DNA of 64,000 nucleotides from Escherichia coli (GTDB lineage: Bacteria; Pseudomonadota; Gammaproteobacteria; Enterobacterales; Enterobacteriaceae): NCBI RefSeq assembly GCF_048403405.1, contig NZ_CP183129.1; one strand, 5' to 3'. Position 1 is the stretch's first letter, and each line of letters begins with the position of its first letter. The notes beneath the pieces were generated by a model. It was not told where the DNA came from and did no database searches. It saw nothing but the letters and a program-made list of their open reading frames with translations. Of the stretch, positions 1,497-60,927 are shown one piece after another. The translations under genes were made by a program, and so were the position numbers.

Positions 1497-1504
1497 CCTA
1501 CTCC

Positions 1505-1530
1505 AAACTCCCGGCTTGTCCGGGAGTTTG
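1505..1530 (+). terminator. stem-loop just downstream of gldA (caaactcccgg-cttgt-ccgggagtttg); no clear T-run
   Basis: Perfect 11 bp inverted repeat directly after gldA stop. Confidence 0.35.
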
Positions 1531-1554
1531 AGAGTGCAGGCAAAGTGGCTCACT

Positions 1555-1690
1555 CGTCACTGCGGGCATGTTTTTCCCCCTCGCCCTTTCAGGGAGAGGG
1601 TCGGAGTGAGGGTAAATATTCGCCCCGGAGCTGGCCTGTTCCCCTCACCCTAACCCTCTCCCCAAAGGGGAGAGGGGACTGTTCGAGCAC
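1555..1690. repeat. GC-rich intergenic repeat cluster (boxC-like: ccctcgccctttcagggagagggt... and cccctcaccctaaccctctccccaaaggggagagggga)
   Basis: Internal inverted repeats; a related copy in the opposite orientation lies at 48445..48612. Confidence 0.6.
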
Positions 1691-1826
1691 TTTTTATACG
1701 TTATCACCCGTCTGAAACTCCCACGTTGTTCAGGAATTTTTTATCCGCTTCTGGACATTTTCTCTACAGAACAATCGTTAGCCCGGAAGGTCGAATCTGT
1801 GACTCTTATTTTCACGGACGAACCAG

Positions 1827-7249: not shown

Positions 7250-8803
7250 TTACTTGATATCTTTCACGCGCATACCGTTGATCTGTTCATCCGTGATGGT
7301 GTTACCCGCTTTGAAGTAATCAACCACGGCGTGATAAACGTAATAACCGCCCGTTGTGTTACGCGCTTTCCCTTCGGTAAAGGCGGTAAAACCATCTCCA
7401 CCATCAGCAAGGAAACTCTGAGTAGCAATGTGGTAAATCGTCGCATCTTCAATGGGTTTGCCATTCAGAGTCAGCGTGATTACCCGCTGACCAACCGGCT
7501 TACTGCTGTCGTACTTCATTTCCAGGCCTTTCGATACCTGTAAAACGCCATTACTTAAACTTGCGCCGTGTTCCATCAAACTGCGTAATTGTTTACCCGT
7601 GAGATCCATCGTCACCAGTTCGTTGGGAAACGGGAAGGTACTGATGACGCCGCCCATCGTAATCGCCCCTGCGGGGATCTCATTGCGAATGCCGCCAGAG
7701 TTGGTTAACGCCAATTGGGTGTTTTTACCCGCCGCTACCAGTAAAGCATCAGCCGCCAGGTTCCCGAGGGAAGCCGATTCACCATAGGCACGTTTTAATT
7801 CAACCGGCGATTTCGCGACCGTTTGTTGCACCACTTCATCAAGCTTTTTATTCCAGCCGTCGATCACCTGTTTTGTTTGCGGATCGGGCTTCCACTCGTC
7901 GGCGTAAATGGTTTTAAGCTCGAAGTTTTTCACCGTAAAATCATGCGGCTTCTCTTTGTAGTCGAGAACCAGTTTGCCCACATCAATCCCGCCGCTGTCA
8001 GTGGAGAGGATGAGCGTATTGCCGACTTTAATCGGTTCCGGCGTACCCACATGCGCATGTCCGGTGATCAAAATATCCAGCCCTTTCACCTGACTTGCCG
8101 TCTGAATATCTTTATCCAGCGCGCGACGCACATCTGTGCCTCCCATACTGGACTGGCGGGCCGGAACACCTTCATGGATCAGGGCGACGGTCAAATCAAC
8201 CTTGCCTTTAAGTTCATCGATATAACGTTGTAGCCATTTAATTTCATCACGCGCTTCAATCCCCACTCGCGTTGCCGCAGATACCGTGTCATTAAAGGCA
8301 AATACACCGTGCAAACCTATAACGCCTATTTTCACGCCGTCTTTTTCGATGATGGTATATGGCTTATCCCAGAATGATTTACTGCTGTTCTGATAAAAAA
8401 CATTGCCCTGCACAATAGGGAATTTTGCCTGACTCAACTGTAATAATGTGTTGTCCCAGCCGTGGTCAAATTCATGGTTGCCTATCGTGACGGCATCAAA
8501 CGGCATAGTATTCATAATATCGATAATAGCCTTACCTTTGGTCAGGCTGCTGATATATGGCCCGGTAAAATAATCACCCGCATCAAAAAACCATGTCGCT
8601 TTATTTTTTGCTTTTTCTTGCTTAACCAGCGTAGTGATATTTGCCCAGCCGCCAATATCCCGTTTACCATCAGCGATCCACGGCACTTTATAAGGCTCGA
8701 CATGCGCATGGAGGTCGTTGGTATAAATGATGGTGACATCTTTGGCGCAAGCCCAAAACGGCAGTGTTAATGCGATACCCGCAGCAAGTATTTTAATTTT
8801 CAT
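7250..8803 (-). CDS. periplasmic bifunctional metallophosphatase/5'-nucleotidase (UshA/YfkN family)
   Basis: 517 aa; signal peptide [20 protein letters not shown]; calcineurin-like motifs NDLHAH, GDYFTG, GNHEFD, GHAH; C-terminal 5'-nucleotidase-like region; RBS aaggga. Confidence 0.8.
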
Positions 8804-8935
8804 AAACAGTCCCTTTCAGTGAGATAAAGGATTGCTACATTACGTTCTGAAAGAGTTATTTATGTGAGAGTAATCACATCCACAGGGGAGCGTTGCCGGA
8901 CAAAATCAACGACCATGTGAAATCGTTGGTGATAT

Positions 8936-10066
8936 ATGTCGACTCTGTTTACGATTAATGCCTGCAAGTCGTTTGGTTGCCGTAATTTAGGGCAGCCAAC
9001 ATCTAAAGATTATAGCTGGCCCGACTATCGGCTGGGTTATCCGGCATTGCACTGTCGGGCATGTGGCAGTTACCCGCCGTTGTTTGACGAGCAACAATTT
9101 CGTGACTGGTTGTCAGTTCACTTATCTACTTTTGCAACAGAGAAAGGCCATTTTTGCCCGGTATGTTATGGCACAAAGACGATTTGTTATGGCCACAATC
9201 CACAGGGGTCGCAACGCATTCAATGTCGTAACTGCAAAAAAGTCTGGACACCTAAACAATATCAGAAAGAAATAACGCCTCCTGAAATAATCGAAACGGT
9301 TGCTCTTCTGGTGCCATTTCAGGGAGCCAGCAATGGGCAGAAACTGTATGTTTTAATCAGTTTTGATGCTCTTCGCGGTAATATTCTTCATCTTTCTACT
9401 AATTACACGCAGCATCAGGCTGGAGAAAGTCTGCATTATCGATACAGAGGGAATGCAGAACCAGAGTTACACGAGAGTAATATTGTACAACGCGTTGATA
9501 TGCGCGAAGCACAATTTCTACGCCGCAGTCAGTTTGATGAAATTCAGTATGGCAGCGCAGCGCTCAAACGCAATGCTAAAGGTGTTATTCTGCGTCCGGT
9601 TATCACTGCACACGGGCATTTCAGAGTACTGAATATTTTATTCCCTACAGTAAAAACACATGTAATTTCACACGAGTGTTTTTTAAGAGGTGCGATTATT
9701 ACGGCCTGGGCAGAACTGTTTCGCCAACAGCAAGGTGAGATTTGGTTTATTGAAGAGGAAATAGCTGACTATACCGATAATACGCCCTGGCGTTTTCAGG
9801 GAAAAACTTATCACGGCTGGTGGAAAAATCAGTGGCAACTCTGGGTTCAGGGCAAAAATCGTAAAATGGTATGTGCATTAACGGGCGGAAATATCAGCAA
9901 AGCTGAAATGCTCTCTTTAGCAACCAGCAGACATTTTATCGACTGGCTACATAAACAAGCAGTATTTACTCACAGCGCCCCGCTTTCCGCAGGGCGCGTT
10001 ACGCAAATACTGCTTTCTCTGGCTCAGGATTACAACAACTGCGCCAGGCGGTTAATATCCGACTGA
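8936..10066 (+). CDS. hypothetical Cys-rich protein with N-terminal zinc-ribbon motifs (CxxC...CxxC), function unknown
   Basis: 376 aa ORF; CRACGS, CPVCYG-x19-CRNCKK reminiscent of IS1/IS1595 transposase zinc ribbons; 3' end overlaps the metL 3' end convergently. Confidence 0.5.
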   Translation: MSTLFTINACKSFGCRNLGQPTSKDYSWPDYRLGYPALHCRACGSYPPLFDEQQFRDWLSVHLSTFATEKGHFCPVCYGTKTICYGHNPQGSQRIQCRNCKKVWTPKQYQKEITPPEIIETVALLVPFQGASNGQKLYVLISFDALRGNILHLSTNYTQHQAGESLHYRYRGNAEPELHESNIVQRVDMREAQFLRRSQFDEIQYGSAALKRNAKGVILRPVITAHGHFRVLNILFPTVKTHVISHECFLRGAIITAWAELFRQQQGEIWFIEEEIADYTDNTPWRFQGKTYHGWWKNQWQLWVQGKNRKMVCALTGGNISKAEMLSLATSRHFIDWLHKQAVFTHSAPLSAGRVTQILLSLAQDYNNCARRLISD

Positions 10067-15031: not shown

Positions 15032-15304
15032 ATGGTCACAGTTAACCTTCATTGTCCCCGTTGCCAGTCCGTTCAGGTTTACCGTCACGGGCAGAACCCC
15101 AAAAGACATGATCGATTCCGCGGCCGTGACTGTCACCGGGTATTTCAACTCAGTTACTGTTACGAGCCCCGTAAACCGGGAGTTAAAGACCAAATCGCTG
15201 AAATGGCTTTCAACGGTGCCGGGGTTCGCTATACTGCCCGTACGCTGAAAATCGGCATTAATACAGTCATCCGAACTTTAAAAAACTCTCGCCACGAAGA
15301 ATAA
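15032..15304 (+). CDS. insA: IS1 InsA (zinc-finger / HTH transposition inhibitor)
   Basis: 90 aa MVTVNLHCPRCQSVQVYRHGQ... aligns with IS1 InsA by eye. Confidence 0.8.
   Translation: MVTVNLHCPRCQSVQVYRHGQNPKRHDRFRGRDCHRVFQLSYCYEPRKPGVKDQIAEMAFNGAGVRYTARTLKIGINTVIRTLKNSRHEE
15280..15286 (+). promoter_or_regulatory. A6C programmed -1 ribosomal frameshift motif of IS1 (aaaaaac)
   Basis: Motif at the insA 3' end, as in canonical IS1. Confidence 0.6.
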
Positions 15305-15322
15305 CGTCATCCCCGGTCGCTC

Positions 15323-15738
15323 ATGCTGATGTGGCACTCATCTGCGAACGTAGTCAGCAATGGAGCTTTGTCGGCAGTAAAGCGCGACAGCACTGGCTCT
15401 GGTACGTGTACAACACGAAAACTGGTGGTGTTCTGGCCTACACTTTTGGCCCCCGGACTGATGAAACCTGTCGTGAACTGCTGGCGCTGCTTACCCTTTT
15501 ACCATCGGCATGTTGACCACTGACGAATGGGGTAGTTACGCTAGAGAGTTACCAAAGGAGAAGCATCTGACTGGTAAGATTTTTACTCAGCACATTGAGC
15601 GTAACAATCTGACCCTGAGAACCCGAATCAAACGTCTGGCCCGCAGAACCATCTGTTTCTCGCGTTCTGTAGAACTTCATGAAAAAGTCATCGGTGCTTT
15701 TATCGAAAATATATGTTCTACTAATTGGAGTCATCACC
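15323..15738 (+). pseudogene. insB: IS1 insB, interrupted by an additional frameshift near 15480-15510; reading frame also runs past the right IR
   Basis: InsB-like sequence split between two frames (…AYTFGPRTDETCRELLALLTLLPSAC* / …PFTIGMLTTDEWGSYARELPKEKHLTGKIFTQHIERNNLTLR…). Confidence 0.6.
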
Positions 15739-15793
15739 CTTCTGATGAGCTTTCCTTGGATGATTACCAGACTGAATACACAGCCAAAGATTT

Positions 15794-16117
15794 TTACCTC
15801 ATTCTGCTCTTTTTTCTCAAATGACATATATTATATTTTACATCATATTCATAGGTATATGACATTCCCCCGCCCCCCATTATGTCATTGTGGGTTGATG
15901 TTGGGCTTTCATAAAAAAATACATCTTTTTTTGAACTAGCATTAATTATATTTACTTTATATATTAAAATATTTTCTCCATCTGGAAATATTTTAGCCAC
16001 ACAATATAAAGCAGCTAAATCCGAATTACTTAAAAATATATTGTCATCACTCATAACTCCAGCCATTAAATGACTGGAGACTAAAGCAAGGAAATAACAA
16101 CATTGTATTGCCTTCAT
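15794..16117 (-). CDS. putative immunity protein for the orphan Rhs C-terminal toxin
   Basis: 107 aa from ATG 16117 (MKAIQCCYFLALVSSHLMAG...), GGGAG RBS, start 1 nt after the orphan rhs-CT stop; N-terminal hydrophobic segment; AT-rich. Confidence 0.55.
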   Translation of the reverse strand: MKAIQCCYFLALVSSHLMAGVMSDDNIFLSNSDLAALYCVAKIFPDGENILIYKVNIINASSKKDVFFYESPTSTHNDIMGGGGMSYTYEYDVKYNICHLRKKSRMR

Positions 16118-16118
16118 T

Positions 16119-17654
16119 TTAATTACTCCCTTGCCTGATAATTGCAACTCCATTCCCTTTAGCTTTGGGATTATATTTTAGATAGGTGTTATTTGGTGTT
16201 CCCAAGTAACTACTGTATTCTTTTTTTCCCATTCCATTCATATAAGAATTCGTTAAATCTTTGCTTGAAAAATTTAGACTATCATAAACATCATTTTCTT
16301 TTGTTACTTTATTTCCTTTATCGTCAGAGTAAAAACCGTGAGTGTGATAATCACCTACTCTCTCTGAACCTTCAGGGCATTTTATATTTCGCAAGTCTAC
16401 ACTATCATTATCATTTGAACTTATCGGATTCATAGGGAAATATTCACCTTGCTTCTTACATATTAGTCCACCATATTCTTTATTCTTGTTAATTGATTCT
16501 CCATTACACATTGCCAATGCAAATATTCCAATATCATCTATATTTTTTGATTTAAATTCATATAATCCTAATGGATCCATGCCATTCACCGGGCTCAGCG
16601 GATATGTATACAGGTTCCATCCCCCCTTCAGCCCAATCGGATCCTGAGTGATATACCGCCCCTGCAGCGGGTCATAATAGCGGTGGCGGTTGTAATACAG
16701 GCCGGACTCCTCATCATACTGCTGACCCGGCAGGCGGATGAGCTGCTGCAGCTGATGCGGGTTCTCTTCATTCAGCTGGTTACCCCATTCATCGTATTCT
16801 GCGCACCATTCTGTTGCCCCTTCCGTGCTGACAAGCGCCAGCGGCAGGCCGCGATGGTCGCAGTGGTACAGGTGGATTTTTCGCGCCGGCGTGTACACCG
16901 GGTCCATCTGGTTTTGTATCTGCTCCACCGTCAGGCCGCACGATGCCAGCCAGCGGCGGCTTTCCTCGCTCACCCGGTCAGCCAGGATTTCACTTTCCAG
17001 CCGGTCGAGCATCTGCACCAGCACCGGCGGGAACACCACACTGCCACCGTCTTCACCGCCGGACTGCTGAAGCGCATCCGCCAGGCTGCGGCGCTGCGTT
17101 TTCGCCAGCTCACCGGTGGCAGTTTCAACTCTGATGAGTGGCGTGAAGCTCCCCGGCTGATAAACCGTCTGGATGCGGGTTCTGTCGTTCTGTATTGTGG
17201 TCAGCCGGTCGCCGTCCCAGCCGTACCAGGTCACTTCCGGTTTCCATGACAGCGACATCCAGCCCGTCAGGTCCCGTTCACGCCGCCATACCCGTTTTGC
17301 CACCCTGCGGCCCAGCAGGTCGTAAAGATAGCGACTTTCGACCAGCGGCTCTGCATATTGTGTCCGCGTGTAGTGCACCAGCCGGTGCCGGCTGTCGTAA
17401 TGGTACCGGTGAGTCCGCTCATCATCCGTGCGGATAACCCCTTCCGGGATGAGGTCGGTTTTCTCCGTCAGCCTGCCGTGACGGTCATACCGGTAAAGAT
17501 AGTGCGCGTCACGGGCGATACGGTTATCCGGCCATGCGCTGAGGGGGCTGTCCGGGTGCAGCTCCGGGTCGGGCAGGCGGTTGCCTGCCGGGTCCGTGGC
17601 ATACGGGATATCAATGCCCAGGTTACATATAATAATAAGAGCAATTAACTTAAT
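16119..17654 (-). CDS. orphan Rhs C-terminal module: 5'-truncated rhs core ending in the DPLGL motif plus a distinct ~150 aa toxin tip; no start codon of its own
   Basis: Frame is open from 17654 but first ATG/GTG/TTG is at 17378; residues ...[22 protein letters not shown]...[39 protein letters not shown] are near-identical to the main rhs; tip contains YHTHG. Confidence 0.7.
16606..17608 (-). repeat. ~1.0 kb direct repeat (orphan copy) of the rhs core 3' region
   Basis: Near-identical to 20946..21938 (only scattered mismatches on visual alignment). Confidence 0.8.
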
Positions 17655-17981
17655 TTATTTGTTTATAATGCGCTTACTTAATACAAACCATTGAATATAC
17701 CCTCCTGACAGAAAATAAAGCCATATTATTATCGCCATAATATACTTACTATCAATCCTTACGCCAATAATGTCTGAAACAGTCCCTATAAATATTAGAG
17801 CAATAAAGAATACTATGCCTGTTGGAAAACAGATTACCATCATTCCATAAGACATGAGACTAATTAACTCGCTCACATCACGAGTGGAGTCTAATAGTGA
17901 AAGTCTATGCATGGAAAAGAATAGTATTAAAAGCGATAAAGCCAGCCATATAGCTCTGAATAAAAAAATAATATATTTCAT
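17655..17981 (-). CDS. small polytopic membrane protein (108 aa), candidate stranded immunity protein
   Basis: MKYIIFLFRAIWLALSLLILFF...; about three hydrophobic helices; AT-rich; stop codon directly abuts the orphan rhs frame. Confidence 0.4.
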   Translation of the reverse strand: MKYIIFLFRAIWLALSLLILFFSMHRLSLLDSTRDVSELISLMSYGMMVICFPTGIVFFIALIFIGTVSDIIGVRIDSKYIMAIIIWLYFLSGGYIQWFVLSKRIINK

Positions 17982-18059
17982 TACATCACTCCGGTGAATA
18001 CAAATCTAATAAAGCGTCCAATGTTATTTCCGGAGCACTTCATCTTACATGTTTCTAAA

Positions 18060-19260
18060 GAATCATTAGACCAGTCAGGGCAAGATTACGAAAGCCCGCT
18101 CCCCGCAAGGACTGACGCGAGATAGTTTCTGTCCATGGCTGCTTTTCGCATCTTACGTCTTAACCCTGCCTTGAATACCTTATCATTCGTCAAAATATTA
18201 ATAGCAATGTGCCGTATCCCTGAAAATAATTCTGCTGCGTTTCCTCTTCTTATTTTGCAGTCGTCTTCATTCATTACCACGTCCAGACGCCAGTGCAGCT
18301 TATTCTCCACGTGCCAGTGGTTTCGGATTGCTGTGGCGAACTTCTCAGCGGTTAAATCAGCAGAGCTGATATAATATCTGACCGTCATTTCTGGCTCTTT
18401 CTTTTGTTCTGCTATTATTGACCGAAAGGAGACTGCCACGTATAATTTTTCAGTCCTTTCCATTCAAATGTAAAATCAATAAGTTCATCAGGGACATCGC
18501 AAACAATATGAAGACGGATTTCTTCTCTGCCGTGACTCTTTTCACTAATTGCGTAACTGTCATGCTCTGGATTAATTAATTCTTTCAGCGGAAATGTTTC
18601 CTCAAAGGCTTTATTCAGCCGCCCCTGGTTTCCTTTTACAGCGAATAAGTAATCACCACCCTGTTTTTGTATCTTCTCTGCAATATCTTTCTGGCAACCC
18701 ATCGCATCAGTTGTGATGATTTTCTCTTTAATATACAAAATGTTAAGAAGTTCAGGGATAGCTGTGATCTCATTAGATTTCTCATCCGTCCTGATCTGCC
18801 CCAGGACCAGAATGTGCATTGTTGAGAACGCACTAATGACATGAATCGCTCCCCTGCGGCGACTCTTGTCATAAGAATGCCGGAGTGTTTTTCCATCAAT
18901 TGCGATGACGTCTTTATCATCTGAAGTATGGCAATCTCGCATCCAGTTAATAAAGCACTCGTGAAATTTTGCAGGACTGATACAGGATACAACTCTGGCG
19001 ATGGTATCGTGAACAGGAATACCATTTTCAAAATCACCGTATTGTTTTAAAAAATCGAGATGTGTTTCCCCAAAATCCTCTATATCTTCCCAACCTTCTG
19101 CACCCGAAATAACGGCACAAATAGTCAACAGTAGAATATCCGATAATTTATGTTCCACTTTCCAGGCTTGTCTGTAATCGGGGATAATAGAAATATGCTC
19201 CATCAATTTTTTAAGTTCCATTTTGTTCTCCTTAATTATGTAAGGAGTATTTGATCATGT
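18060..19260 (-). mobile_element. H-repeat / ISAs1-family element (approximate boundaries)
   Basis: Contains the H-rpt transposase; termini not defined by eye. Confidence 0.5.
18086..19221 (-). pseudogene. H-repeat-associated (ISAs1-family) transposase, split by a frameshift near 18415-18463
   Basis: 268 aa N-terminal piece ([28 protein letters not shown]...) and 125 aa C-terminal piece (…[21 protein letters not shown]…) in different frames. Confidence 0.75.
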
Positions 19261-19324
19261 ATAAGCAATAAAAAACAGCTTTAGGTAATGAGGAATATCT
19301 CAATTTTCAAACATAAAATGCGAA

Positions 19325-19920
19325 TTATTTAGTACAAAAAAGCAGCGTTACGTGATCTTTCCCTGGCATGTCATTAGATGAACCAGTTATACAACCCTCG
19401 GAACAGAATCGAGGTCCTAAAGACGGACCAAAAGCGTTTAAACAACTATGTATTGAAAATCCATTACGATTATAAGTTCCTGTATTAACTGACGGTACTA
19501 ATCGTATGCCGTCAGGTTTTCTATTGCTTGCTCCCGGGTCATTAACATTCCAACTCCATAGGCCTTGAGGTATTGGCCCTCTATTTATAAATGTGTACAA
19601 CGGGGATTATTTTTACATTGCATATTATTACCAGAAGCGACTGGAATACTAAGCACATCATAAAAATTATCATCACCTGGTATATCTGAAACACACGAAA
19701 GCATACCTAAAGTTATGCTGTATAAACAGGTGGCTAATCCCAAGGGGATCGATTCCAGAAATCGGGTTCAACGGATACTGATAAAAATTCCACCTACCTT
19801 CCAGCCCAATCGGAGCCTGAGTGTTATACCGCCCCTGCTGCGGTTAATGTTACCGATAATAGTTATAGTACAGCCCTGATTCATCATCATACTACTGCTG
19901 CGGCAGTCTGATGAATTATT
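19325..19920 (-). pseudogene. degenerate orphan rhs-CT remnant (rhs core 3'-end fragment with stops and intact DPLG codons, then a decayed tip)
   Basis: 19770..19920 is roughly 75% identical to the rhs core end by eye; translation gives [51 protein letters not shown] then a stop; 91-aa ORF 19325..19600 follows. Confidence 0.55.
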
Positions 19921-19924
19921 GCTT

Positions 19925-20392
19925 TTACGGATTCTCCTTATTCTTCCTTCTATCCATTCGCTTTAGCTTTAGCTTTTTGAGATCTTGAAGTTTGCTCTTT
20001 GCATCAATATTACCGTTATTTACAGCGAATTCCATCCAATAAATAGCTTTATTCAAATTATAATGTTCTGATAATATTGGATTTGTATCCGATAAAAAAA
20101 ACCCATAATTAAACTGCGCTGTAACACTCCCCTGAGATGCTGATCTTTCTAAGTATCGCAATTGTTTGTAAATGTTATTTTTAGTAAAGCAGTAATATTG
20201 ATATAGTCGAAATGATGCCTCTGAATCACCATGTTGTGATTTATACTTCAGTTTCATCAACTTTTCTTCACTTAAATCATAGGTCATTGCTGTAGACCCC
20301 ATCATACTTTCGTTTTGTTTTATTTTCACATCAGCACCATGCAATTGAAAAATAAAAGAGAAATAAAAAAATAGTAACAAGCATGCTTTCAT
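19925..20392 (-). CDS. putative Rhs immunity protein, secreted, Sel1-like repeat
   Basis: 155 aa; signal peptide MKACLLLFFYFSFIFQLHGA; Sel1/TPR-like segments (…ASQGSVTAQFNYGFFL…, …AIYWMEFAVNNGNIDA…); starts 12 bp after rhs stop; AT-rich. Confidence 0.6.
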   Translation of the reverse strand: MKACLLLFFYFSFIFQLHGADVKIKQNESMMGSTAMTYDLSEEKLMKLKYKSQHGDSEASFRLYQYYCFTKNNIYKQLRYLERSASQGSVTAQFNYGFFLSDTNPILSEHYNLNKAIYWMEFAVNNGNIDAKSKLQDLKKLKLKRMDRRKNKENP

Positions 20393-20403
20393 ACATCTAC
20401 AAC

Positions 20404-23400
20404 CTATCTTATATCACTGGGTTTTTCTGGCGTACCTTGCATATTAGAAATGGGGTGCCCAGATGGCCCATATGTTATCCAATTACCAAGGTCTTTTGTT
20501 GTTATAGCCATTAGATCCTTATTTGAATTAAGGTTCGTTGGTGCTGTTAGCACTGTATCCATTTTTAACTTACCATTAGTTCCTCGCCCCCACCACGTCC
20601 ATAGCGTGTCAGGTCCTATTACATTTGTATGTAACTCTTTAGCTAATTGGCTAGCAAATGAATTTTGTCCTTTACCTGTATTACAAGAAAATAACCAAAC
20701 TGTCATCCCATCTTTATAATTCCCATCAAATTTAATTAGATATGCTAGATCTTTAGCTGTCATGATACTGCGCGTTGCGGATTCAATAGATGTGGGGGTA
20801 CCATGCCCCCCGATTGTGAAAACGCCTGGGATATTAATCTCATCAGCTACAGAATGGATAAGATCACTTTCGGGGTATAAATTTATATCAACCAAACCTT
20901 GCGGATCTACATTTATGACCGGATCCAACGGATACTGATAAAAATTCCATCCCCCCTTAAGCCCAATCGGATCCTGAGTGATATACCGCCCCTGCAGCGG
21001 GTCATAATAGCGGTGGCGGTTGTAATAGAGGCCGGACTCCTCATCATACTGCTGACCCGGCAGGCGGATGAGCTGCTGCAGCTGGTGCGGGTTCTCTTCA
21101 TTCAGCAGGTTGCCCCATTCATCGTATTCTGCGCACCATTCTGTTGCCCCTTCCGTGCTGACAAGCGCCAGCGGCAGGCCGCGATGGTCGCAGTGGTACA
21201 GGTGGATTTTTCGCGCCGGCGTGTACACCGGGTCCATCTGGTTTTGTATCTGCTCCACCGTCAGGCCGCACGATGCCAGCCAGCGGCGGCTTTCCTCGCT
21301 CACCCGGTCAGTAAGGATTTCACTTTCCAGCCGGTCGAGCATCTGCACCAGCACCGGCGGGAACACCACACTGCCACCGTCTTCGCCGCCGGACTGCTGA
21401 AGGGCATCCGCCAGGCTGCGGCGCTGCGTTTTCGCCAGCTCACCGGTGGCGGTTTCAACTCTGATGAGTGGCGTGAAGCTCCCCGGCTGATAAACCGTCT
21501 GGATGCGGGTTCTGTCGTTCTGTATTGTGGTCAGCCGGTCGCCGTCCCAGCCGTACCAGGTCACTTCCGGTTTCCGTGACAGCGACATCCAGCCCGTCAG
21601 GTCCCGTTCACGCCGCCATACCCGTTTTGCCACCCTGCGGCCCAGCGGGTCGTAAAGATAGCGACTTTCGACCAGCGGCTCTGCATATTGTGTCCGCGTG
21701 TAGTGCACCAGCCGGTGCCGGCTGTCGTAATGATACCGGTGAGTCCGCTCATCATCCGTGCGGATAACCCCTTCCGGGATGAGGTCGGTTTTCTCTGTCA
21801 GCCTGCCGTGACGGTCATACCGGTAAAGATAGTGCGCGTCACGGGCGATACGGTTATCCGGCCACATGCTGAGGGTGCTGTCCGGGTGCAGCTCCGGGTC
21901 GGGCAGGCGGTTACCTGCCGGGTCCGTGGCATACGGGATGCGGATATCCAGATTCGCTGCGGTGGTGTGGACGCCGGTCAGCCTGCCGGTGTCGCTGTAG
22001 CTGTAACTCCGGGTCTGGCGCGGGCTGCTGATGCGGATGAGTTCGCCGTTGTCGTTCCAGGTGTAATCGCGGTCATACTGCAGGCTGTTCAGGTGCTGGC
22101 TCTGTAACTGCCCGGCAGAGGTGTAAGCGGTGGTGAGTTCATAACGGCCGAAGCTGCGCAGCGTTTCCCGGTGCAGGCGGTCGCGGGTGAAATCCACCAG
22201 CGGTGTGTCGCCGAGTTTCATGCCTGACAGCCAGCCGCTGCCGTAGGTCAGCCATTCCACGGCGGGCAGGCTGTCCGGTATACAGCGGTTCGCCAGTCCC
22301 TGCGCGTTGTACGCATGTCTGGTTTCATGCTGCCAGAGCAGTGCTTCCGTCTGCGGGTGATGCACCGTCTGGCGCTCACCGGTCAGGCGGCCTTTCTCAT
22401 CATACCCGTAATGCACCGTCACCCGGTGGCCTTCGCTGAGATGGCTGATGCCTGTCAGCCAGCCGCGTTCGTCGTACCGCCACTGTTCTGCGGTTTCACC
22501 ATTCACCGTTCGCTGTGTGATGCGGTCTGCTTCGTCATAGTGCCAGTGGGTGACCAGCCCCTCATCCTCGCTGCGGATAAGTTTGCCGGTCAGGTCGTGG
22601 TGATAACGCTGTGTGCGGCCGTCAAAGCCGGTTTCCTGTATCAGCCGGTCAAGTACATCGTAACGGAAGGTGGTGTGGCTGCCGTTTTCACTGGTCAGGC
22701 GGATGACCCGCCCGGCAGCATCGTATTCCATACTGCGCGTCAGACCGCCCTGCGTGGTACGGATGGCCTTTCCCCACGCATCGTACTGTGTCCCGTTTCT
22801 GCTGTCGTCCGGGGCAATGACGGCGGTCAGGTCACCGGCGGCGTTGTATTCATACCGCGTTTCATGGCCCTGCATGTCTTTCACCGCAATTAACTGTCCA
22901 CGGCTGTCGTATGCGCGGTACTGGCTCAGGCCTTCCTCGCGGTGCACCGTCGTCACCTGACCAAAACGGTCATGGTCATAGCGGGTTACATAACCGGAAC
23001 AGTCGGTAAAGCTCAGCAACTGACCGTAACGGCTCCACGTCATGGTTTTCCGGCTGCCGGTGGCATCTTCCGTTGCGCAGGGGAAGTCACTGTGTGGATT
23101 ATCATAACGGTAGCGGGTGATATCGCCGTCAGGGGCGGTTTCCTGAATCAGACGGCCGGATTCATCATATTTGCGGCGCAACTCCAGCCCGTCAGTCCCG
23201 GTGGCTGACGTTAACTGGTTGTGGTGGTTATAGTAAAATGCCGATGCCCTGCCATCCGGTGTGGTGATGCGCGTGATGAGTCCCGTCACCACATCCGGGC
23301 TGTACTCAGTCGTCCGGCCTGCGGCATCCGTCTGTGCCTTAAGCCTGCCCACCGCATCAAACTGACTCTGCGCGACGCTGCCGTCCGCGTGTTCCTTTTT

Positions 23401-24633
23401 CACCACCCGCTTCAGCCCGCCTTCGCCCTGCGTGTGCAGCACTTCACGGCGGTCCAGACTGTCGGTGATGGTGATGCGGTCTTTCTCATACTGATACGTG
23501 TAGCTTAAGCCTGCCGGGTTTAGCTGCTCTGTCACCCGCCCGTCGCTGTCGTAACGGTAACGGATTTCCGGCCGGCCCGCGCGGCGGTGCGCCACCATCC
23601 GGCCCCGGTATTTATCATCGTAAGTAAAGCTGCGCACCTGTTTGCCACTGCGGTCATACACCGCCGCCAGTTCGCCGCGTGGCGTCCAGCCATAGCGCAC
23701 CAGCGGCGCGGCAGGTAAATTCTCCGGGTATTCAGGGTCGTGTGTCAGCCACACGGCAGACAGACGGATACCGTTGTCCCGGCCATATTCCGTGTAGTCC
23801 GGCAGGGTATCAGGAAAAGCGGACGGTTCCGTCCCGCCGGAAGTGGCCTTCTGCCGGGCCTCTTCTGCCCGCTGCGCCTGCGTGGTCAGTACCAGCCGGA
23901 AGTGACGCCCGGCACCATCCGTCACGCCGGTGATTTCGCCGCTGAATTCACCGCCAGCCTCACGGTGAAACGTCTGTGTGCGCCCGAAGCGGTCCACCAG
24001 CCCGGTCAGTACCCGGTACGGCGGCAGCGGCGCGGGCAGCACCTCATCCGCCTCCGGCACCTGCTCACACCAGCCGAGTACCCACCACGGCCCCTGCGGA
24101 CTGTTTGTCGCCAGATAACGATGCGGACTCAGGCGGAGTTCTTCCGGCAGCGCCTGCCAGAGTGCGGCCAGCCGGTGACCTTCATCCAGTTTCAGGACAC
24201 CGCCACGCACCAGCCAGAGTGATTCGCTGCGGCTGTAACCGTCCTCACCGGGAAACAGGTGCTCAAAATACAGGCTCCTGCCGCCGTTATCACTGAGTAT
24301 CAGTGTGTTATCGCGCAGCTGTAGGCGGATATCCGCAGGCATTTTCCAGCCGGGGCCGAGGCTCCCCACCGGCGCGGGCGTTTTTGTCCGGTAACTGCTG
24401 TAGGTGCGGGAGAGGATGAACGGCAGCGGGCCGGGCAGGGCAAGGTCGGTTTCGCCGGGAAGGACCTTCGCACCGAGCAGCGGATTGACCGGATGGCCGG
24501 ACGTCACCCCGCCGGGGCACACCGAACAGGCCACGCCGGTGGGGGCACCAATACGTACCCCGGCAGAACCCTGAACAATGCTACCGCCATACTGCGTCAT
24601 GTCGCCCTGACGCGCCGCCGGTTTTCCGCTCAT
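20404..24633 (-). CDS. rhs: Rhs-family polymorphic toxin (PAAR-like N-terminus, YD repeats, core ending PxxxxDPxGL, variable C-terminal toxin tip)
   Basis: 1409 aa; N-terminus [31 protein letters not shown]; many YD-type repeats; ...[14 protein letters not shown] followed by a ~162 aa AT-rich tip. Confidence 0.9.
20946..21938 (-). repeat. ~1.0 kb direct repeat (main rhs copy) shared with the orphan rhs-CT
   Basis: Near-identical to 16606..17608. Confidence 0.8.
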
Positions 24634-24792: not shown

Positions 24793-25044
<252 letters not shown>

Positions 25045-25048
25045 CTAA

Positions 25049-27406
<2,358 letters not shown>

Positions 27407-29662: not shown

Positions 29663-29730
29663 TAATTGCATTATGCCCCGTACTTTTGTACGGGGTTTGT
29701 ACTCTGTATTCGTAACCAAGGGGTCAGCTC

Positions 29731-30261
29731 GTGACAACTATAGTAAGCGTACGCCGTAACGGCCATGTGGTCATCGCTGGTGATGGTCAGGCCACGTTGG
29801 GCAATACCGTAATGAAAGGCAACGTGAAAAAGGTCCGCCGTCTGTACAACGACAAAGTCATCGCGGGCTTTGCGGGCGGTACTGCGGATGCTTTTACGCT
29901 GTTCGAACTGTTTGAACGTAAACTGGAAATGCATCAGGGCCATCTGGTCAAAGCTGCCGTTGAGCTGGCGAAAGACTGGCGTACCGATCGCATGCTGCGC
30001 AAACTTGAAGCACTGCTGGCAGTCGCGGATGAAACTGCATCGCTTATCATCACCGGTAACGGTGACGTGGTGCAGCCAGAAAACGATCTTATTGCTATCG
30101 GCTCCGGCGGCCCTTACGCCCAGGCTGCGGCGCGCGCGCTGTTAGAAAACACTGAACTTAGCGCCCGTGAAATTGCTGAAAAGGCGTTGGATATTGCAGG
30201 CGACATTTGCATCTATACCAACCATTTCCACACCATCGAAGAATTAAGCTACAAAGCGTAA
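29731..30261 (+). CDS. hslV: ATP-dependent protease subunit HslV
   Basis: 176 aa [30 protein letters not shown]. Confidence 0.95.
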
Positions 30262-43346: not shown

Positions 43347-43450
43347 GATGCCGGATGCGGCGCGAACGCCTTATCAGGCCTACAAAAGTTTGCAAATTCA
43401 ATAAATTGCAGAATTCACGTAGGCCTGATAAGCGAAGCGCATCAGGCATT
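43347..43450. repeat. REP / BIME (two inverted palindromic units: gatgccggatgcggcgcgaacgccttatcaggcctac ... gtaggcctgataagcgaagcgcatcaggca)
   Basis: Classic REP consensus in convergent orientation. Confidence 0.85.
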
Positions 43451-48416: not shown

Positions 48417-48444
48417 ACTCGGCGCAGAGCCGTCCCCTTCGGGG

Positions 48445-48612
48445 TGAAGACAACAGGTCAGCACTGTGCGAACTGATACCCTCACCCCGGCCCTCTCCCT
48501 GAAAGGGCGAGGGGGAAAAACGTAGCCCTGTTCAGCAACGGAGCTGAGCACCGCTCCGGACAGTCCCCTCGCCCCTCTGGGGAGAGGGTTAGGGTGAGGG
48601 GAAAAATTCAGC
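48445..48612. repeat. GC-rich intergenic repeat cluster (boxC-like), related to 1555..1690 in opposite orientation
   Basis: ccctcaccccggccctctccctgaaagggcgaggggg ... cccctcgcccctctggggagagggttagggtgagggg. Confidence 0.6.
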
Positions 48613-48671
48613 ACAATGCAAACGGCACTGCTCTCACCGGAAACCATGCCAGATTTCGTATTAAGGCAGAC

Positions 48672-50649: not shown

Positions 50650-51360
50650 TCACAAATAAATATCCTCCGGCATAGCCGGAGGTTTTTCAAATGCGCCTAT
50701 AAGGCTCTCTTACCAGCCGCGCCCTAACAGGCGCACACGATCTGACATTTGCATCCAACTTCGTTACTTACGGCCCGTAAACGGGCTGCCCGGATAGGGA
50801 ATCGATAACTGCTCTCCCATTTTATCCTCTTCAAGCTGGTGCTTTATGTAATCCTGTATCTTCGCCGTGTTCTTACCCACCGTATCGACGTAGTACCCTC
50901 TGCACCAGAACTCCCTGTTCCTGTATTTGAATTTCAAATCACCAAACTGCTCGTAAAGCATCAGACTGCTTTTCCCTTTCAGATATCCCATAAAGCCGGA
51001 TACGCTCATTTTGGGCGGGATCTCCACAAGCATATGGATATGATCTGCACAGCATTCAGCTTCCAGAATCCGTACACTTTTCCACTCACACAGCTTTCTC
51101 AAAATACTGCCTATTGCTCTACGCTTCTCTCTGTAGAACACCTGTCTTCGGTATTTTGGCGCAAAAACTATGTGATATTTACAGTTCCATCGGGTGTGCG
51201 CTAAGCTCTTTTCGTTCCCCATTGGGACCCCCTTTTGATTTCTTGTTTGACACTTGCAGTTGCCAGACCGCAAGGTGTTTTAACAAATCAAAAGGGGTTT
51301 TAATAACTGGCTTAAAGCTGAAAGCTTTCCGGAACCCCCAGCCTAGCTGGGGGTTTTCTG
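50650..51360 (-). mobile_element. IS200-like element (IS200/IS605 family), approximate boundaries
   Basis: Contains IS200-type TnpA; characteristic perfect hairpins cctccggc-ata-gccggagg (50665..50683) and cccccagc-cta-gctggggg (51334..51353) near the ends. Confidence 0.75.
50764..51225 (-). CDS. tnpA: IS200 transposase TnpA (HuH Y1 family)
   Basis: MGNEKSLAHTRWNCKYHIVFAPKYRRQVFYREKRRAIGSILRKLCEWKSVRILEAECCADHIHMLVEIPPK... ; HxH motif; ~153 aa. Confidence 0.9.
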   Translation of the reverse strand, partial: PMGNEKSLAHTRWNCKYHIVFAPKYRRQVFYREKRRAIGSILRKLCEWKSVRILEAECCADHIHMLVEIPPKMSVSGFMGYLKGKSSLMLYEQFGDLKFKYRNREFWCRGYYVDTVGKNTAKIQDYIKHQLEEDKMGEQLSIPYPGSPFTGRK

Positions 51361-58163: not shown

Positions 58164-58290
58164 TGCCTGATGCGGCGCAAGCGCCTTATCCGGCCTACGG
58201 GTCGGCAATAGTTGTAGGCCTGATAAGACGCGACAGCGTCGCATCAGGCATTGATTGCCGGATGCGGCACGAGTGCCTTATCCGGCCTAC
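58164..58290. repeat. REP / BIME cluster (three palindromic units) between rhaA and rhaD
   Basis: gcctgatgcggcgcaagcgccttatccggcctac; gtaggcctgataagacgcgacagcgtcgcatcaggca; gccggatgcggcacgagtgccttatccggcctac. Confidence 0.85.
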
Positions 58291-58343
58291 AGATCGTATA
58301 TCCGGCAACAGGCACGGACGTCCAATTAACAGGAACACAGAAC

Positions 58344-59168
58344 ATGCAAAACATTACCCAGTCCTGGTTTGTCCAGGGAATGATCAAAGCCACCACCGAC
58401 GCCTGGCTGAAAGGCTGGGACGAGCGCAATGGTGGTAACCTGACGCTGCGCCTGGATGACGCCGATATCGCGCCTTATCACGGCAACTTTCATGCACAAC
58501 CGCGCTATATCCCGCTCAGCCAGCCCATGCCTTTACTGGCAAATACACCGTTTATTGTCACCGGCTCCGGCAAATTCTTCCGCAACGTCCAGCTTGATCC
58601 TGCGGCTAACTTAGGCGTCGTAAAAGTCGACAGCGACGGCGCGGGCTACCACATTCTCTGGGGGCTAACTCACGAAGCCGTTCCAACCTCTGAACTTCCG
58701 GCGCACTTCCTCTCTCATTGCGAACGCATTAAAGCCACCAACGGTAAAGATCGGGTGATCATGCACTGCCATGCCACCAACCTGATCGCCCTTACCTACG
58801 TACTGGAAAACGACACCGCGGTCTTCACTCGCCAACTGTGGGAAGGCAGCACCGAATGTCTGGTAGTGTTCCCGGATGGCGTCGGCATTTTGCCGTGGAT
58901 GGTGCCCGGCACCGACGAAATCGGCCAGGCGACCGCACAGGAAATGCAAAAACATTCGCTGGTGTTGTGGCCCTTCCACGGCGTCTTCGGCAGCGGTCCG
59001 ACACTGGATGAAACATTCGGTTTAATCGACACCGCAGAAAAATCAGCACAAGTATTAGTGAAGGCTTATTCGATGGGCGGCATGAAACAGACCATCAGCC
59101 GTGAAGAGCTGATAGCGCTCGGCCAGCGTTTCGGCGTTACACCACTCGCCAGTGCGCTGGCGCTGTAA
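58344..59168 (+). CDS. rhaD: rhamnulose-1-phosphate aldolase
   Basis: ORF 58251..59168 trimmed to ATG 58344 ([25 protein letters not shown]); 274 aa. Confidence 0.95.
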
Positions 59169-59177
59169 GGAGCAAAC

Positions 59178-59492
59178 ATGATCCGCAAAGCCTTTGTCAT
59201 GCAGGTTAACCCCGACGCCCACGAAGAGTATCAGCGTCGGCATAATCCAATCTGGCCGGAACTGGAAGCAGTGTTGAAATCTCACGGTGCGCATAACTAC
59301 GCCATTTACCTCGACAAAGCGCGTAATCTGCTATTTGCCACAGTAGAGATTGAATCTGAAGAACGGTGGAATGCGGTAGCCAGTACTGATGTTTGCCAAC
59401 GTTGGTGGAAATATATGACCGACGTTATGCCAGCTAACCCGGATAACAGCCCAGTCAGTAGCGAGCTGCAAGACGTGTTTTACCTGCCTTAA
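59178..59492 (+). CDS. rhaM: L-rhamnose mutarotase
   Basis: 104 aa [30 protein letters not shown]. Confidence 0.95.
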
Positions 59493-59499
59493 TGAGTTG

Positions 59500-59526
59500 C
59501 GGTGCCGGAAAATATCCAGCACCGCG
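59500..59526. terminator. bidirectional hairpin between convergent rhaM and the porin gene
   Basis: gcggtgc-cggaaaatatcca-gcaccgc. Confidence 0.5.
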
Positions 59527-59532
59527 CCTTCA

Positions 59533-60927
59533 TCAGAAGAAGTATTTAAAGCGAACGCGTGCCCCGTAACGGTCATCAGTATCATCACCGTGTTTTTTAT
59601 CACCGTCGCTATCCAGAATGGAGTAATACGTCCCGAGGTAAATATTAAAGTTCTCCATATCCATCACATTAGCGAACTGATAAGACGCATGAATGGTATG
59701 AATGGTGTACGTCCCTTCATCATCAATCCAGCAGTCGTTATCACAAACTACACCGCTGAATTCATCAATCTTATTGTGCGCGTAGATATAACCGAGCTCG
59801 AAACGTTTCCACAGCGCGTTAATCCCGGCAGTGAAATCTTTCTCATTATTAGCATCTAAATAGGCGGTATTAAGATTAACCACGACGCCATTTTCCGGAT
59901 CCGTTTTCAGGCCATTCCAGGTCATGCTCATACCATAGCCGGTACGATCGGACTGATCGACAAAATTACCCTTGCTATCGGTATAACCATAAGCATTATT
60001 TACCACGTTCGCTTCCATCGCTGCGGAAACGGTGAATTCTTCTGTCGGCGACCAGGCAATTACCGGACGCAGATAAGCAACATTTTTCTGCTGCTCCATA
60101 TCGCGTCCATGATAATTACCGTCATTATATAAAGATGTTCCGTCTTCAAGTAACGTGTTTAATTCAAAATACCAGTTATCGAGTTGTTTGCTGACGAGGA
60201 AATTACCGCCAGCGTTAGAGCGCCCGCGGCCCTCTTTCATCATATAGATATAACCGCTGCCATCGTCATAAAGATCGTTCGCAGTATTACCGGAATGTTC
60301 AACAAAGGTATCCTGATTCAGCGGGAACATATCATAGGCTTCGAAACGACCGACTTTGACCTTCCAGTCATTCTCTTTCCCAAAGAAGAATACCGCGTCA
60401 TCAATATTCACTGAACCGTGCATATCCCCCAGCGGTTGTGCGGAGAACCCGGCGAAATAACCATTATCCAGTTTTCGCATACCATCAAAACCTAACAGAA
60501 TACGACCATTGAGATTCCACTGTTCATTAGTGGGATCGCTATTCACATCAGCGTTGGTCATTGCCAGCAGGCCATGATTACTTTCTGCATCCATATTAAA
60601 TTCTACGTCGCCGTAGATTTTTAAATCGCCATAACCTGAGAGCAAAAGATTAGGTGAGGTGGAATTTTTCTTTGCAGATTCCGCCGTTGCCTGTCCATTT
60701 ACCGGCGTATTGCCCTGGGCAGCCTTAATTTCGCGGATCTCAGCGGCTTGTTGTGTCTGCAGCTGTTTAACCTGGCTCTCTGCTTTTGCTGCCCGCATTT
60801 CTGCCGCTTCCAGGCGTTCTTCCAGCAATGCCATGCGTTGTTCCAGCGTTAAATGCTGTGTTTTTGCCATTCCGGTACTACATGCCAATAATAAACCGAT
60901 GGCTAAAGATAATGTCGATTTTTTCAT
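59533..60927 (-). CDS. outer-membrane beta-barrel porin, probably carbohydrate-selective (LamB/ScrY/OprB-like), with N-terminal coiled-coil extension
   Basis: 464 aa; signal peptide MKKSTLSLAIGLLLACSTGMA; coiled-coil LEQRMALLEERLEAAEMRAAKAESQVKQLQ; C-terminal ...RVRFKYFF (terminal Phe OMP signature); family call is by resemblance only. Confidence 0.65.
   Translation of the reverse strand: MKKSTLSLAIGLLLACSTGMAKTQHLTLEQRMALLEERLEAAEMRAAKAESQVKQLQTQQAAEIREIKAAQGNTPVNGQATAESAKKNSTSPNLLLSGYGDLKIYGDVEFNMDAESNHGLLAMTNADVNSDPTNEQWNLNGRILLGFDGMRKLDNGYFAGFSAQPLGDMHGSVNIDDAVFFFGKENDWKVKVGRFEAYDMFPLNQDTFVEHSGNTANDLYDDGSGYIYMMKEGRGRSNAGGNFLVSKQLDNWYFELNTLLEDGTSLYNDGNYHGRDMEQQKNVAYLRPVIAWSPTEEFTVSAAMEANVVNNAYGYTDSKGNFVDQSDRTGYGMSMTWNGLKTDPENGVVVNLNTAYLDANNEKDFTAGINALWKRFELGYIYAHNKIDEFSGVVCDNDCWIDDEGTYTIHTIHASYQFANVMDMENFNIYLGTYYSILDSDGDKKHGDDTDDRYGARVRFKYFF

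Follow-up and report, generated by a model that had tools for sequence, protein, structure and literature searches.

BoxC (Bergler 1992), the PIT elements (Hoyne & Maher 2000, 2002) and the TMECO triplex motif (Holder et al. 2015, PMC4666352) are the same family of repeats, known in enterobacteria as GC-rich intergenic units of 54-56 bp. The TMECO consensus is CCCTCNCCC-N3-6-GGGNGAGGG-N3-GGGNGAGGG, and 23 copies are listed in K-12 MG1655 (PMC4666352). The literature puts the K-12 copy number at 22-32 (PMC4666352, PMC2267715), and Enterobacter asburiae has 143 copies (PMC4666352). BoxC also figures among the known E. coli stem-loop families of an independent survey (PMC2267715). In the core, a 9-bp C-stem is paired with a G-block; a second, mirror G-block can fold back and is the potential third strand of a purine-motif intrastrand triplex (PMC4666352). 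Type A units have TTA as the second loop and type B units have CCG; in K-12, five of five closely spaced pairs combine one A and one B unit in inverted orientation. A strictly intergenic location and polymorphism of the loci between strains have been reported as well (PMC4666352). The boxC of rRNA antitermination (boxB-boxA-boxC of rrn leaders) is an unrelated element that has only the name in common.

The closest comparison is with REP sequences and the BIMEs and REPINs that they form (Bertels & Rainey 2011, PMC3116915). These are likewise short intergenic palindromes that come in inverted pairs and fold into one long hairpin. The end of a REP unit carries a conserved GTAG/CGTC tetranucleotide tag (PMC3733652). 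REPINs are REP doublets mobilised by a RAYT, an IS200/IS605-like Y1 transposase whose gene is flanked by the repeats. ERIC/IRU, the Neisseria Correia/NEMIS elements and pneumococcal BOX/RUP resemble boxC in being non-coding, intergenic, strongly folding, strain-polymorphic and mostly without an assigned function, but differ from it in sequence and size. Where miniature repeats possess terminal inverted repeats and target duplications, they are MITEs belonging to known IS families. Unlike such repeats, boxC has no established MITE-type terminal ends.

Two pairs of boxC units in a 64-kb window

The DNA analyzed here is a 64-kb stretch from E. coli (the window). A sequence-only reading of it had pointed to boxC-like, GC-rich repeats in two distant spacers, gldA-yijF and cpxA-yiiM. 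We took the gene map from the annotation of E. coli TUM14771 (NZ_CP128875.1; human faeces, Japan), minus strand, to which both query regions are 100% identical. By this annotation the gene names and coordinates of that reading are right: the gldA-yijF spacer (site A) lies at 1497-1826 between co-directional genes and the cpxA-yiiM spacer (site B) at 48417-48671 between convergent genes. The repeats are real as well, and match the published boxC/PIT/TMECO consensus.

Self-alignment of the 64 kb, which had been proposed as a check, puts two inverted pairs at the head of the list: 1630-1685 against 48557-48612 (56 nt, 88% complementary) and 1570-1623 against 48468-48521 (54 nt, 89% complementary). 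The longest exact inverted runs are 31 nt (1570-1600 / 48491-48521) and 26 nt (1639-1664 / 48578-48603). The 22-mer CCCTCACCCTAACCCTCTCCCC occurs exactly twice in the window, at 1642-1663 (+) and 48579-48600 (-), and has 0 matches in 100 dinucleotide shuffles of the window. The full TMECO pattern is matched exactly by three units and by nothing in the shuffles, and its hairpin half matches all four units and nowhere else in the 64 kb, with 0 expected. The window contains exactly four boxC units, two in gldA-yijF (1570-1685) and two in cpxA-yiiM (48468-48612).

Since the units are G/C-rich (61-63% GC, compared to 51.5% for the window) and made of short repeated blocks, one may ask whether the two clusters are alike by chance or through low-complexity GC-rich sequence. 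However, the zeros in the shuffles, for the 22-mer and for the structured patterns, together with the long exact runs, mean that the cross-site similarity is specific and far above chance. The arms extend over 54-56 nt at 88-89%, the units are identical to published copies, and queries containing them find a median of 6 places per genome (5,425 E. coli genomes). The similarity is not of the low-complexity kind that the sequence-only reading had allowed for. The shuffles rule this explanation out, and we give it practically no credence.

Both sites are pairs of boxC units. The core pattern is exact in three units and departs by one G>A change in the fourth, the units measure 54 or 56 nt, and copies identical to them have been published. 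These loci share with boxC/PIT/TMECO the consensus, the unit of 54-56 bp, the A (TTA) and B (CCG/TCG) types and the inverted A+B pairs, and they do not differ from it in kind. Both loci are absent from K-12 MG1655; neither appears in its copy list (Table 1, PMC4666352), and gldA, yijF, cpxA and yiiM are not named in the supplements of that paper.

Architecture of the units and pairs

Site A starts with unit A1 (1570..1623, plus strand; core 1578-1613), a boxC/TMECO unit that is type B-like, with TCG as the second loop. Its core reads CCCTCGCCC-TTTCA-GGGAGAGGG-TCG-GAGTGAGGG-T, with one G>A change in the third block. In an alignment, strain EC556 has an intact GGGGTGAGGG at this position, so the change in A1 is recent. 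Unit A2 (1630..1685, minus strand; core 1641-1676) is of boxC/TMECO type A, with TTA as the second loop. At site B, unit B1 (48468..48521, minus strand; core 48478-48513) is of type B, with CCG as the second loop, and its core is identical to K-12 TMECO no. 10; unit B2 (48557..48612, plus strand; core 48566-48601) is of type A, and its core is identical to K-12 TMECO nos. 9, 16, 19 and 22 (Table 1, PMC4666352). Across the four cores, 8-9 of 9 positions form Watson-Crick pairs, the hairpin of A2 being perfect (9/9). Third-strand triads are allowed at 9/9 positions in A2, B1 and B2 and at 8/9 in A1.

At site A the type B-like unit (+) precedes the type A unit (-), and the G-rich ends face each other. 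This convergent cassette spans 1541..1694 and has a 27-nt gap between cores, the spacing of K-12 pairs 10/11 and 12/13; the segment that differs from the BIME allele described below runs from about 1529 to 1712. At site B a type B unit (-) is followed by a type A unit (+), and here it is the C-stems that face each other, as in K-12 pair 17/18. This divergent cassette spans 48478-48623 with a 52-nt gap between cores, and the whole cpxA-yiiM spacer (48424..48668) differs from the K-12-type BIME allele.

Both sites follow the pairing rule, with one type A and one type B unit, inverted, within annotated spacers, and each A+B pair forms an imperfect palindrome of 120-150 nt. Between the sites, A1 matches B1 and A2 matches B2, both inverted. 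Since site A is convergent and site B is divergent, neither cluster is the reverse complement of the other. The inverted orientation at 47 kb apart that had been read from the sequence therefore holds for the unit pairs A1/B1 and A2/B2 but not for the clusters as wholes, whose architectures differ. We rejected on the same ground the idea that one cluster is an inverted copy of the other.

A conserved hairpin, AAACTCCCGG...CCGGGAGTTT (1503..1534, plus strand), closely follows the gldA stop codon. It is common to the boxC and BIME alleles and lies outside the repeat.

Search for an inversion between the two spacers

The sequence-only reading had called the clusters potential sites for inversion and had proposed a check for inversion polymorphism between strains. 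As a query we used a chimera of the final 451 nt of gldA followed by the final 451 nt of cpxA in reverse complement; it detects an inversion between the spacers whatever repeat mediated it. The gldA/cpxA inversion junction was found in 0 of 5,426 complete E. coli genomes. The two halves of the query map to separate places in every one of the 5,425 genomes that match it, and no place reaches more than 50% coverage. We therefore rejected an inversion polymorphism among these genomes; at most 160 of them carry both boxC alleles, and the homology is confined to exact runs of 31 and 26 nt, which limits the power of this count against rare inversion events.

The case for clusters acting as substrates of a RecA-mediated 47-kb inversion (or of a deletion via directly oriented unit pairs), polymorphic between strains, comes from the inverted exact runs of 31 and 26 nt. 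Runs of this length are at the lower limit for RecA-dependent exchange. In 1986, Shen and Huang reportedly put the minimal processing segment for homologous recombination in E. coli at 23-27 bp, so the two runs would be at or just above that minimum. But the homology is short and 11-12% diverged, and an inversion would presumably flip essential and highly expressed genes of the interval, ftsN, priA, rpmE, tpiA, pfkA and hslUV, relative to replication. Considering also the missing junction, we regard such a role as very improbable. The family was already known: it has been catalogued since 1992, and its pairing and strain polymorphism are published. With the suggested inversion absent in 5,426 genomes, the repeat finding itself matters little.

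The pair as the recurring unit

We searched a 181-nt segment of site A against the 5,426 complete E. coli genomes. Thousands of genomes without the cassette at gldA-yijF gave a match of 85% coverage and 85-89% identity. This match is the ygfF-gcvP pair, and a further paralog is found at alx-sstT (TMECO 12/13). Aligned over 154 nt, the site A cassette and the K-12 ygfF-gcvP pair (TMECO 10/11) have 89% identity; the likeness includes the non-core spacer and extends about 40 nt into either flank. Similarly, over 126-147 nt, inner spacer and flanks included, the site B pair shows 88-93% identity to a divergent pair that other strains have at rhaA-rhaD. Because the likeness continues through spacer and flanks, whole pairs of about 150 nt appear to have been copied between loci. 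Judging from these alignments, the repeated unit is the pair of about 150 nt and not the single unit.

In this the pairs recall REPINs, in which the doublet is the replicating unit; here the counterpart is paralogous pairs with 88-93% identity over 126-154 nt. REPs and BIMEs also sit at the 3′ ends of genes, in positions identical to those that boxC pairs occupy in other strains. In contrast, REPs have no sequence likeness to boxC and lack its third G-block, the one with triplex potential. Compared to PMC4666352, what is added here is the recurrence of the pair of about 150 nt with its flanks, its alternation with BIMEs at three loci, and copies on plasmids.

As to the plasmids, boxC-like matches occur on 285 PLSDB records, with 110 from Klebsiella, 40 from Azospirillum, 31 from Aeromonas, 29 from Escherichia, 27 from Enterobacter and 25 from Citrobacter. 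Some of the "plasmid" records with boxC are 4.8-4.9 Mb long and evidently chromosomes; near-complete boxC pairs are present on true E. coli plasmids of 113-354 kb. The 2015 paper, in contrast, reported no association of TMECO with plasmids or mobile elements (PMC4666352). Carriage by phages is practically nil, with 3 of 50,697 phage records, and was rejected.

BoxC pairs and BIMEs as alternative alleles

The boxC alleles at both sites are minority alleles. Among the 5,426 complete E. coli genomes, 160 (2.9%) have the site B allele and about 794-897 (15-16%) have the site A allele. The common alleles are not empty. K-12-type strains carry two inverted REPs, a BIME, at both spacers. In alignments of both spacers, the boxC pair and the BIME occupy exactly the same position, with flanks conserved up to the junctions. 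In K-12 MG1655, the homologous 49.5 kb is devoid of TMECO and holds REPs in each of the two spacers.

The rhaA-rhaD spacer is a third locus with this alternation. The strain studied here has a REP/BIME cluster of three REPs there (58164..58296), recognized by self-alignment and by Rfam naRNA4. In strains TC24 and 2015C-3121, the first REP is kept and a divergent boxC pair replaces the other two. The naRNA4 (CssrE) match, at 58217-58287, lies inside the three-REP BIME; the same spacer in K-12 has five REP pairs.

For one of the loci the direction of change can be told. At gldA-yijF a BIME is found in E. albertii, E. whittamii, Escherichia sp. E1V33 and one divergent E. coli, and with the BIME in these outgroups the boxC allele is derived within E. 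coli. At cpxA-yiiM, allele frequency by itself suggests that the BIME is ancestral.

A BIME is the alternative allele at 3 of the 6 pair loci examined. At ygfF-gcvP, the pair lies within a larger ygfF indel. The alternative at alx-sstT is either a deletion between repeated CCCTCTCCC blocks that leaves a plain hairpin (LF82) or an unrelated element of about 390 nt, and at hrpB-mrcB it is a similar partial deletion (strain 7_12_30A) or near-absence. We therefore rejected BIME replacement as a general rule, and with BIMEs as the alternative at only 3 of 6 loci, "replacing BIMEs" may reflect just a sharing of permissive sites. Deletions that leave a hairpin have been described by Holder et al. as the "palindrome effect" (PMC4666352). 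The pairs decay by point mutation and by such deletions, which occur between the repeated CCCTCNCCC blocks and leave a plain hairpin.

The alternation of boxC pairs and BIMEs at the same sites is a modest by-product of an ordinary repeat family. Even so, three neighbouring loci with clean BIME/boxC alternation, one of them polarized, give a testable handle on how boxC spreads. The alternation may also be of use to researchers of repeat dynamics who ask whether a REP pair and a boxC pair can stand in for each other functionally in 3′ spacers.

The BIME alleles at both sites are themselves variable, with IS621 insertions and differing numbers of REPs. IS621, of the IS110 family, is inserted in REP-bearing alleles of strain 2313 at gldA-yijF, where the gldA side is no longer adjacent, and of strain A17 at cpxA-yiiM. 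IS621 prefers REP sequences, and its presence in these alleles fits that preference. The element that replaces the boxC pair in the alx-sstT spacer of E. coli 042, at about 330-720, is GC-rich, has TIR-like ends, and has no match in Rfam.

Some short motifs adjoin the pairs. TTTGAGA(G) is found next to the pair at gldA-yijF (1526-1533 of the window), at ygfF-gcvP (about 588-595 of that locus) and at hrpB-mrcB (about 552-559 of that locus), and it is present in non-boxC alleles too. At site A the replaced segment is bounded by an inverted repeat made up of the flanks GGGAGTTTGA and TCTGAAACTCCC. TTTGAGA(G) and the flanking repeat could be a target or a microhomology motif, or a coincidence (n = 3).

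Folding and function

The sequence-only reading had offered structured RNA 3′ ends as the other possible role and had called for a fold prediction. Folded as RNA, the spacers give -105 kcal/mol (site A, plus), -129 (site B, plus) and -134 (site B, minus), with z-scores of -5.5, -8.5 and -7.6, respectively. In each spacer the two units are predicted to pair with each other, producing one long imperfect hairpin. The part of the proposal that stands is thus the structure, a long and very stable hairpin (z from -5.5 to -8.5); terminator scans, Rfam and published activity are all negative and give no support to a working RNA end. Scans of both sites found no hairpin-plus-U-tract terminator inside the units, and no convincing terminator or promoter in them; the T5 run is 5′ of the hairpin in type B, and in type A it comes about 15 nt after the hairpin. 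Neither site matches Rfam 15 at gathering score, which led us to reject a known RNA family; with relaxed thresholds, only sub-threshold hairpins of eukaryotic miRNA precursors appear. PMC4666352 cites Hoyne & Maher 2002 for an absence of terminator activity, promoter activity and effect on RNA polymerase.

Could the pairs still serve the host as RNA? They might act, as a BIME might, through a hairpin in the 3′ UTRs of gldA, cpxA or yiiM that blocks 3′-5′ exonucleases or insulates convergent transcription. Very stable RNA hairpins are predicted for either strand, the pairs always come just after stop codons or terminators, and the alternative BIME alleles fold alike. REPs stabilise upstream mRNA, a further point in favor of such a role. 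However, no more than 2.9-15% of E. coli genomes have these alleles, whose replacement and deletion occur freely; Rfam has no matching family, a hairpin-plus-U-tract is missing, and the published assays (PMC4666352) were negative for terminator, promoter and RNA polymerase effects. Such a host-serving element is quite unlikely on this balance. A 3′-UTR hairpin with some role for the host is possible alongside a cassette of little effect.

Another explanation works at the level of DNA. According to Holder et al. 2015, the units would form intrastrand triplexes or hairpins, and their role would be the resulting instability, with replication stalled and the surrounding spacer turned into a rearrangement hotspot. 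In three of the four cores, 9/9 purine-motif triads are allowed. Triplex formation by the consensus, as an isolated strand, has been shown in vitro by CD and NMR, and raised variability was reported around TMECO loci in 56 strains (PMC4666352). Our own comparison also finds every locus examined to be polymorphic, including slippage-type deletions between repeated blocks. But polymorphism is also predicted by any gain or loss of repeats, and the BIME alleles at the same sites vary too, in IS621 and in REP numbers. The triplex escaped detection by DMS footprinting in vivo, and no triplex signal came from duplex DNA (PMC4666352). We consider triplex-driven instability doubtful as the role of the units; the reading overlaps with that of a mobile cassette, and the two do not exclude each other. 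As single-stranded DNA, the boxC pairs fold at -29.8 and -42.2 kcal/mol; the BIME alleles, at -25.7 and -21.7 kcal/mol, form a long hairpin of the same kind.

Spread of the pairs

Taken as a whole, the data make it likely that the boxC pairs are REPIN-type cassettes, selfish or near-neutral, that have little effect on the host and do not work as an inversion switch. The pairs would have been copied into spacers at the 3′ ends of genes that tolerate, and often already hold, palindromic repeats. Candidate ways of copying are template switching driven by hairpins or microhomology, gene conversion, or some enzyme that acts on single-strand DNA. At the two spacers studied here, boxC pairs would have replaced ancestral BIMEs in a minority of E. 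coli lineages and would now be decaying. The effect on the host is probably small, at most that of a stable 3′-UTR hairpin comparable to the replaced BIME, and a working inversion switch does not appear to be part of it.

No transposase, target-site duplication or excision product was identified for the boxC pairs, so the "mobile cassette" is a reading drawn from paralog similarity and from presence/absence alleles. We compared filled and empty junctions at gldA-katG of Kluyvera and at hrpB-mrcB of E. coli; they have short similarities, from which no clear target duplication could be read, and the empty forms may be deletion derivatives.

The likeness to REPINs has its limits as well. On inspection of aligned units and pairs, GTAG/CTAC is not conserved at the boundaries of boxC units; for example, where the site B spacer has GTAG, its rhaA-rhaD paralog has ATAG. 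No RAYT gene (IS200/IS605-like Y1 transposase) is annotated in the 64-kb window, and we know of no RAYT-like gene or cognate transposase for boxC. With neither the GTAG tag nor a known transposase, "works like a REPIN" expresses an analogy rather than a classification. A bolder proposal is that boxC pairs are a second family of REPIN-like mobile cassettes in Enterobacteriaceae, independent of REPs, that specifically enters and displaces BIMEs, or competes with them for the same hairpin-tolerant 3′ spacers, and is copied as whole palindromes of about 150 nt by a mechanism acting on single-strand DNA. We hold this to be rather unlikely; if it were true, the A+B pairing rule and the conserved flanks would be recognition features of the copying machinery.

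We also looked at gldA outside Escherichia. Of 74 such loci, of about 7 kb each, two contain TMECOs, in Kluyvera georgiana and in MGYG-HGUT-00110. Both have a divergent TMECO pair immediately 3′ of the gldA stop codon. In K. georgiana, the gldA-katG spacer holds this divergent boxC pair and a degenerate third unit, and at the same place K. cryocrescens and Kluyvera genomosp. 1 have only about 20 nt. In K. ascorbata the spacer is occupied by another palindromic repeat, GTAGCC...GGCTAC. From these sequences, boxC at Kluyvera gldA seems to have reached the 3′ end of this gene independently, and the contents of the Kluyvera spacers show that such spacers are taken in turn by different families of palindromic repeats.

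Other features of the window

Several other segments of the window deserve mention. An RHS element at about 15032-24633 separates rpmE and yiiX, which are neighbours in K-12. Along with an RHS core protein and a sel1-repeat gene, it carries RHS fragments, ybfB and frameshifted ISAs1 and IS1H elements, and it accounts for the long direct repeats 16573-16887 / 20903-21217 seen in the self-alignment. Between metL and metF, adjacent in K-12, about 7250-10066 contains extra genes for a "cytoplasmic protein" and a bifunctional metallophosphatase/5′-nucleotidase. A carbohydrate porin gene at about 58819-60213, between frvA and rhaM, is missing from the K-12 stretch. Rfam matches at gathering level include ES036 (CssrF) at 43349-43426, beside a REP between pfkA and sbp, and STnc490 at 51232-51355, on the sodA-sense strand at the start of sodA. 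Two more are the ClpQY (hslVU) promoter element at 29676-29733 and the L31 ribosomal-protein leader at 25012-25064, upstream of rpmE.
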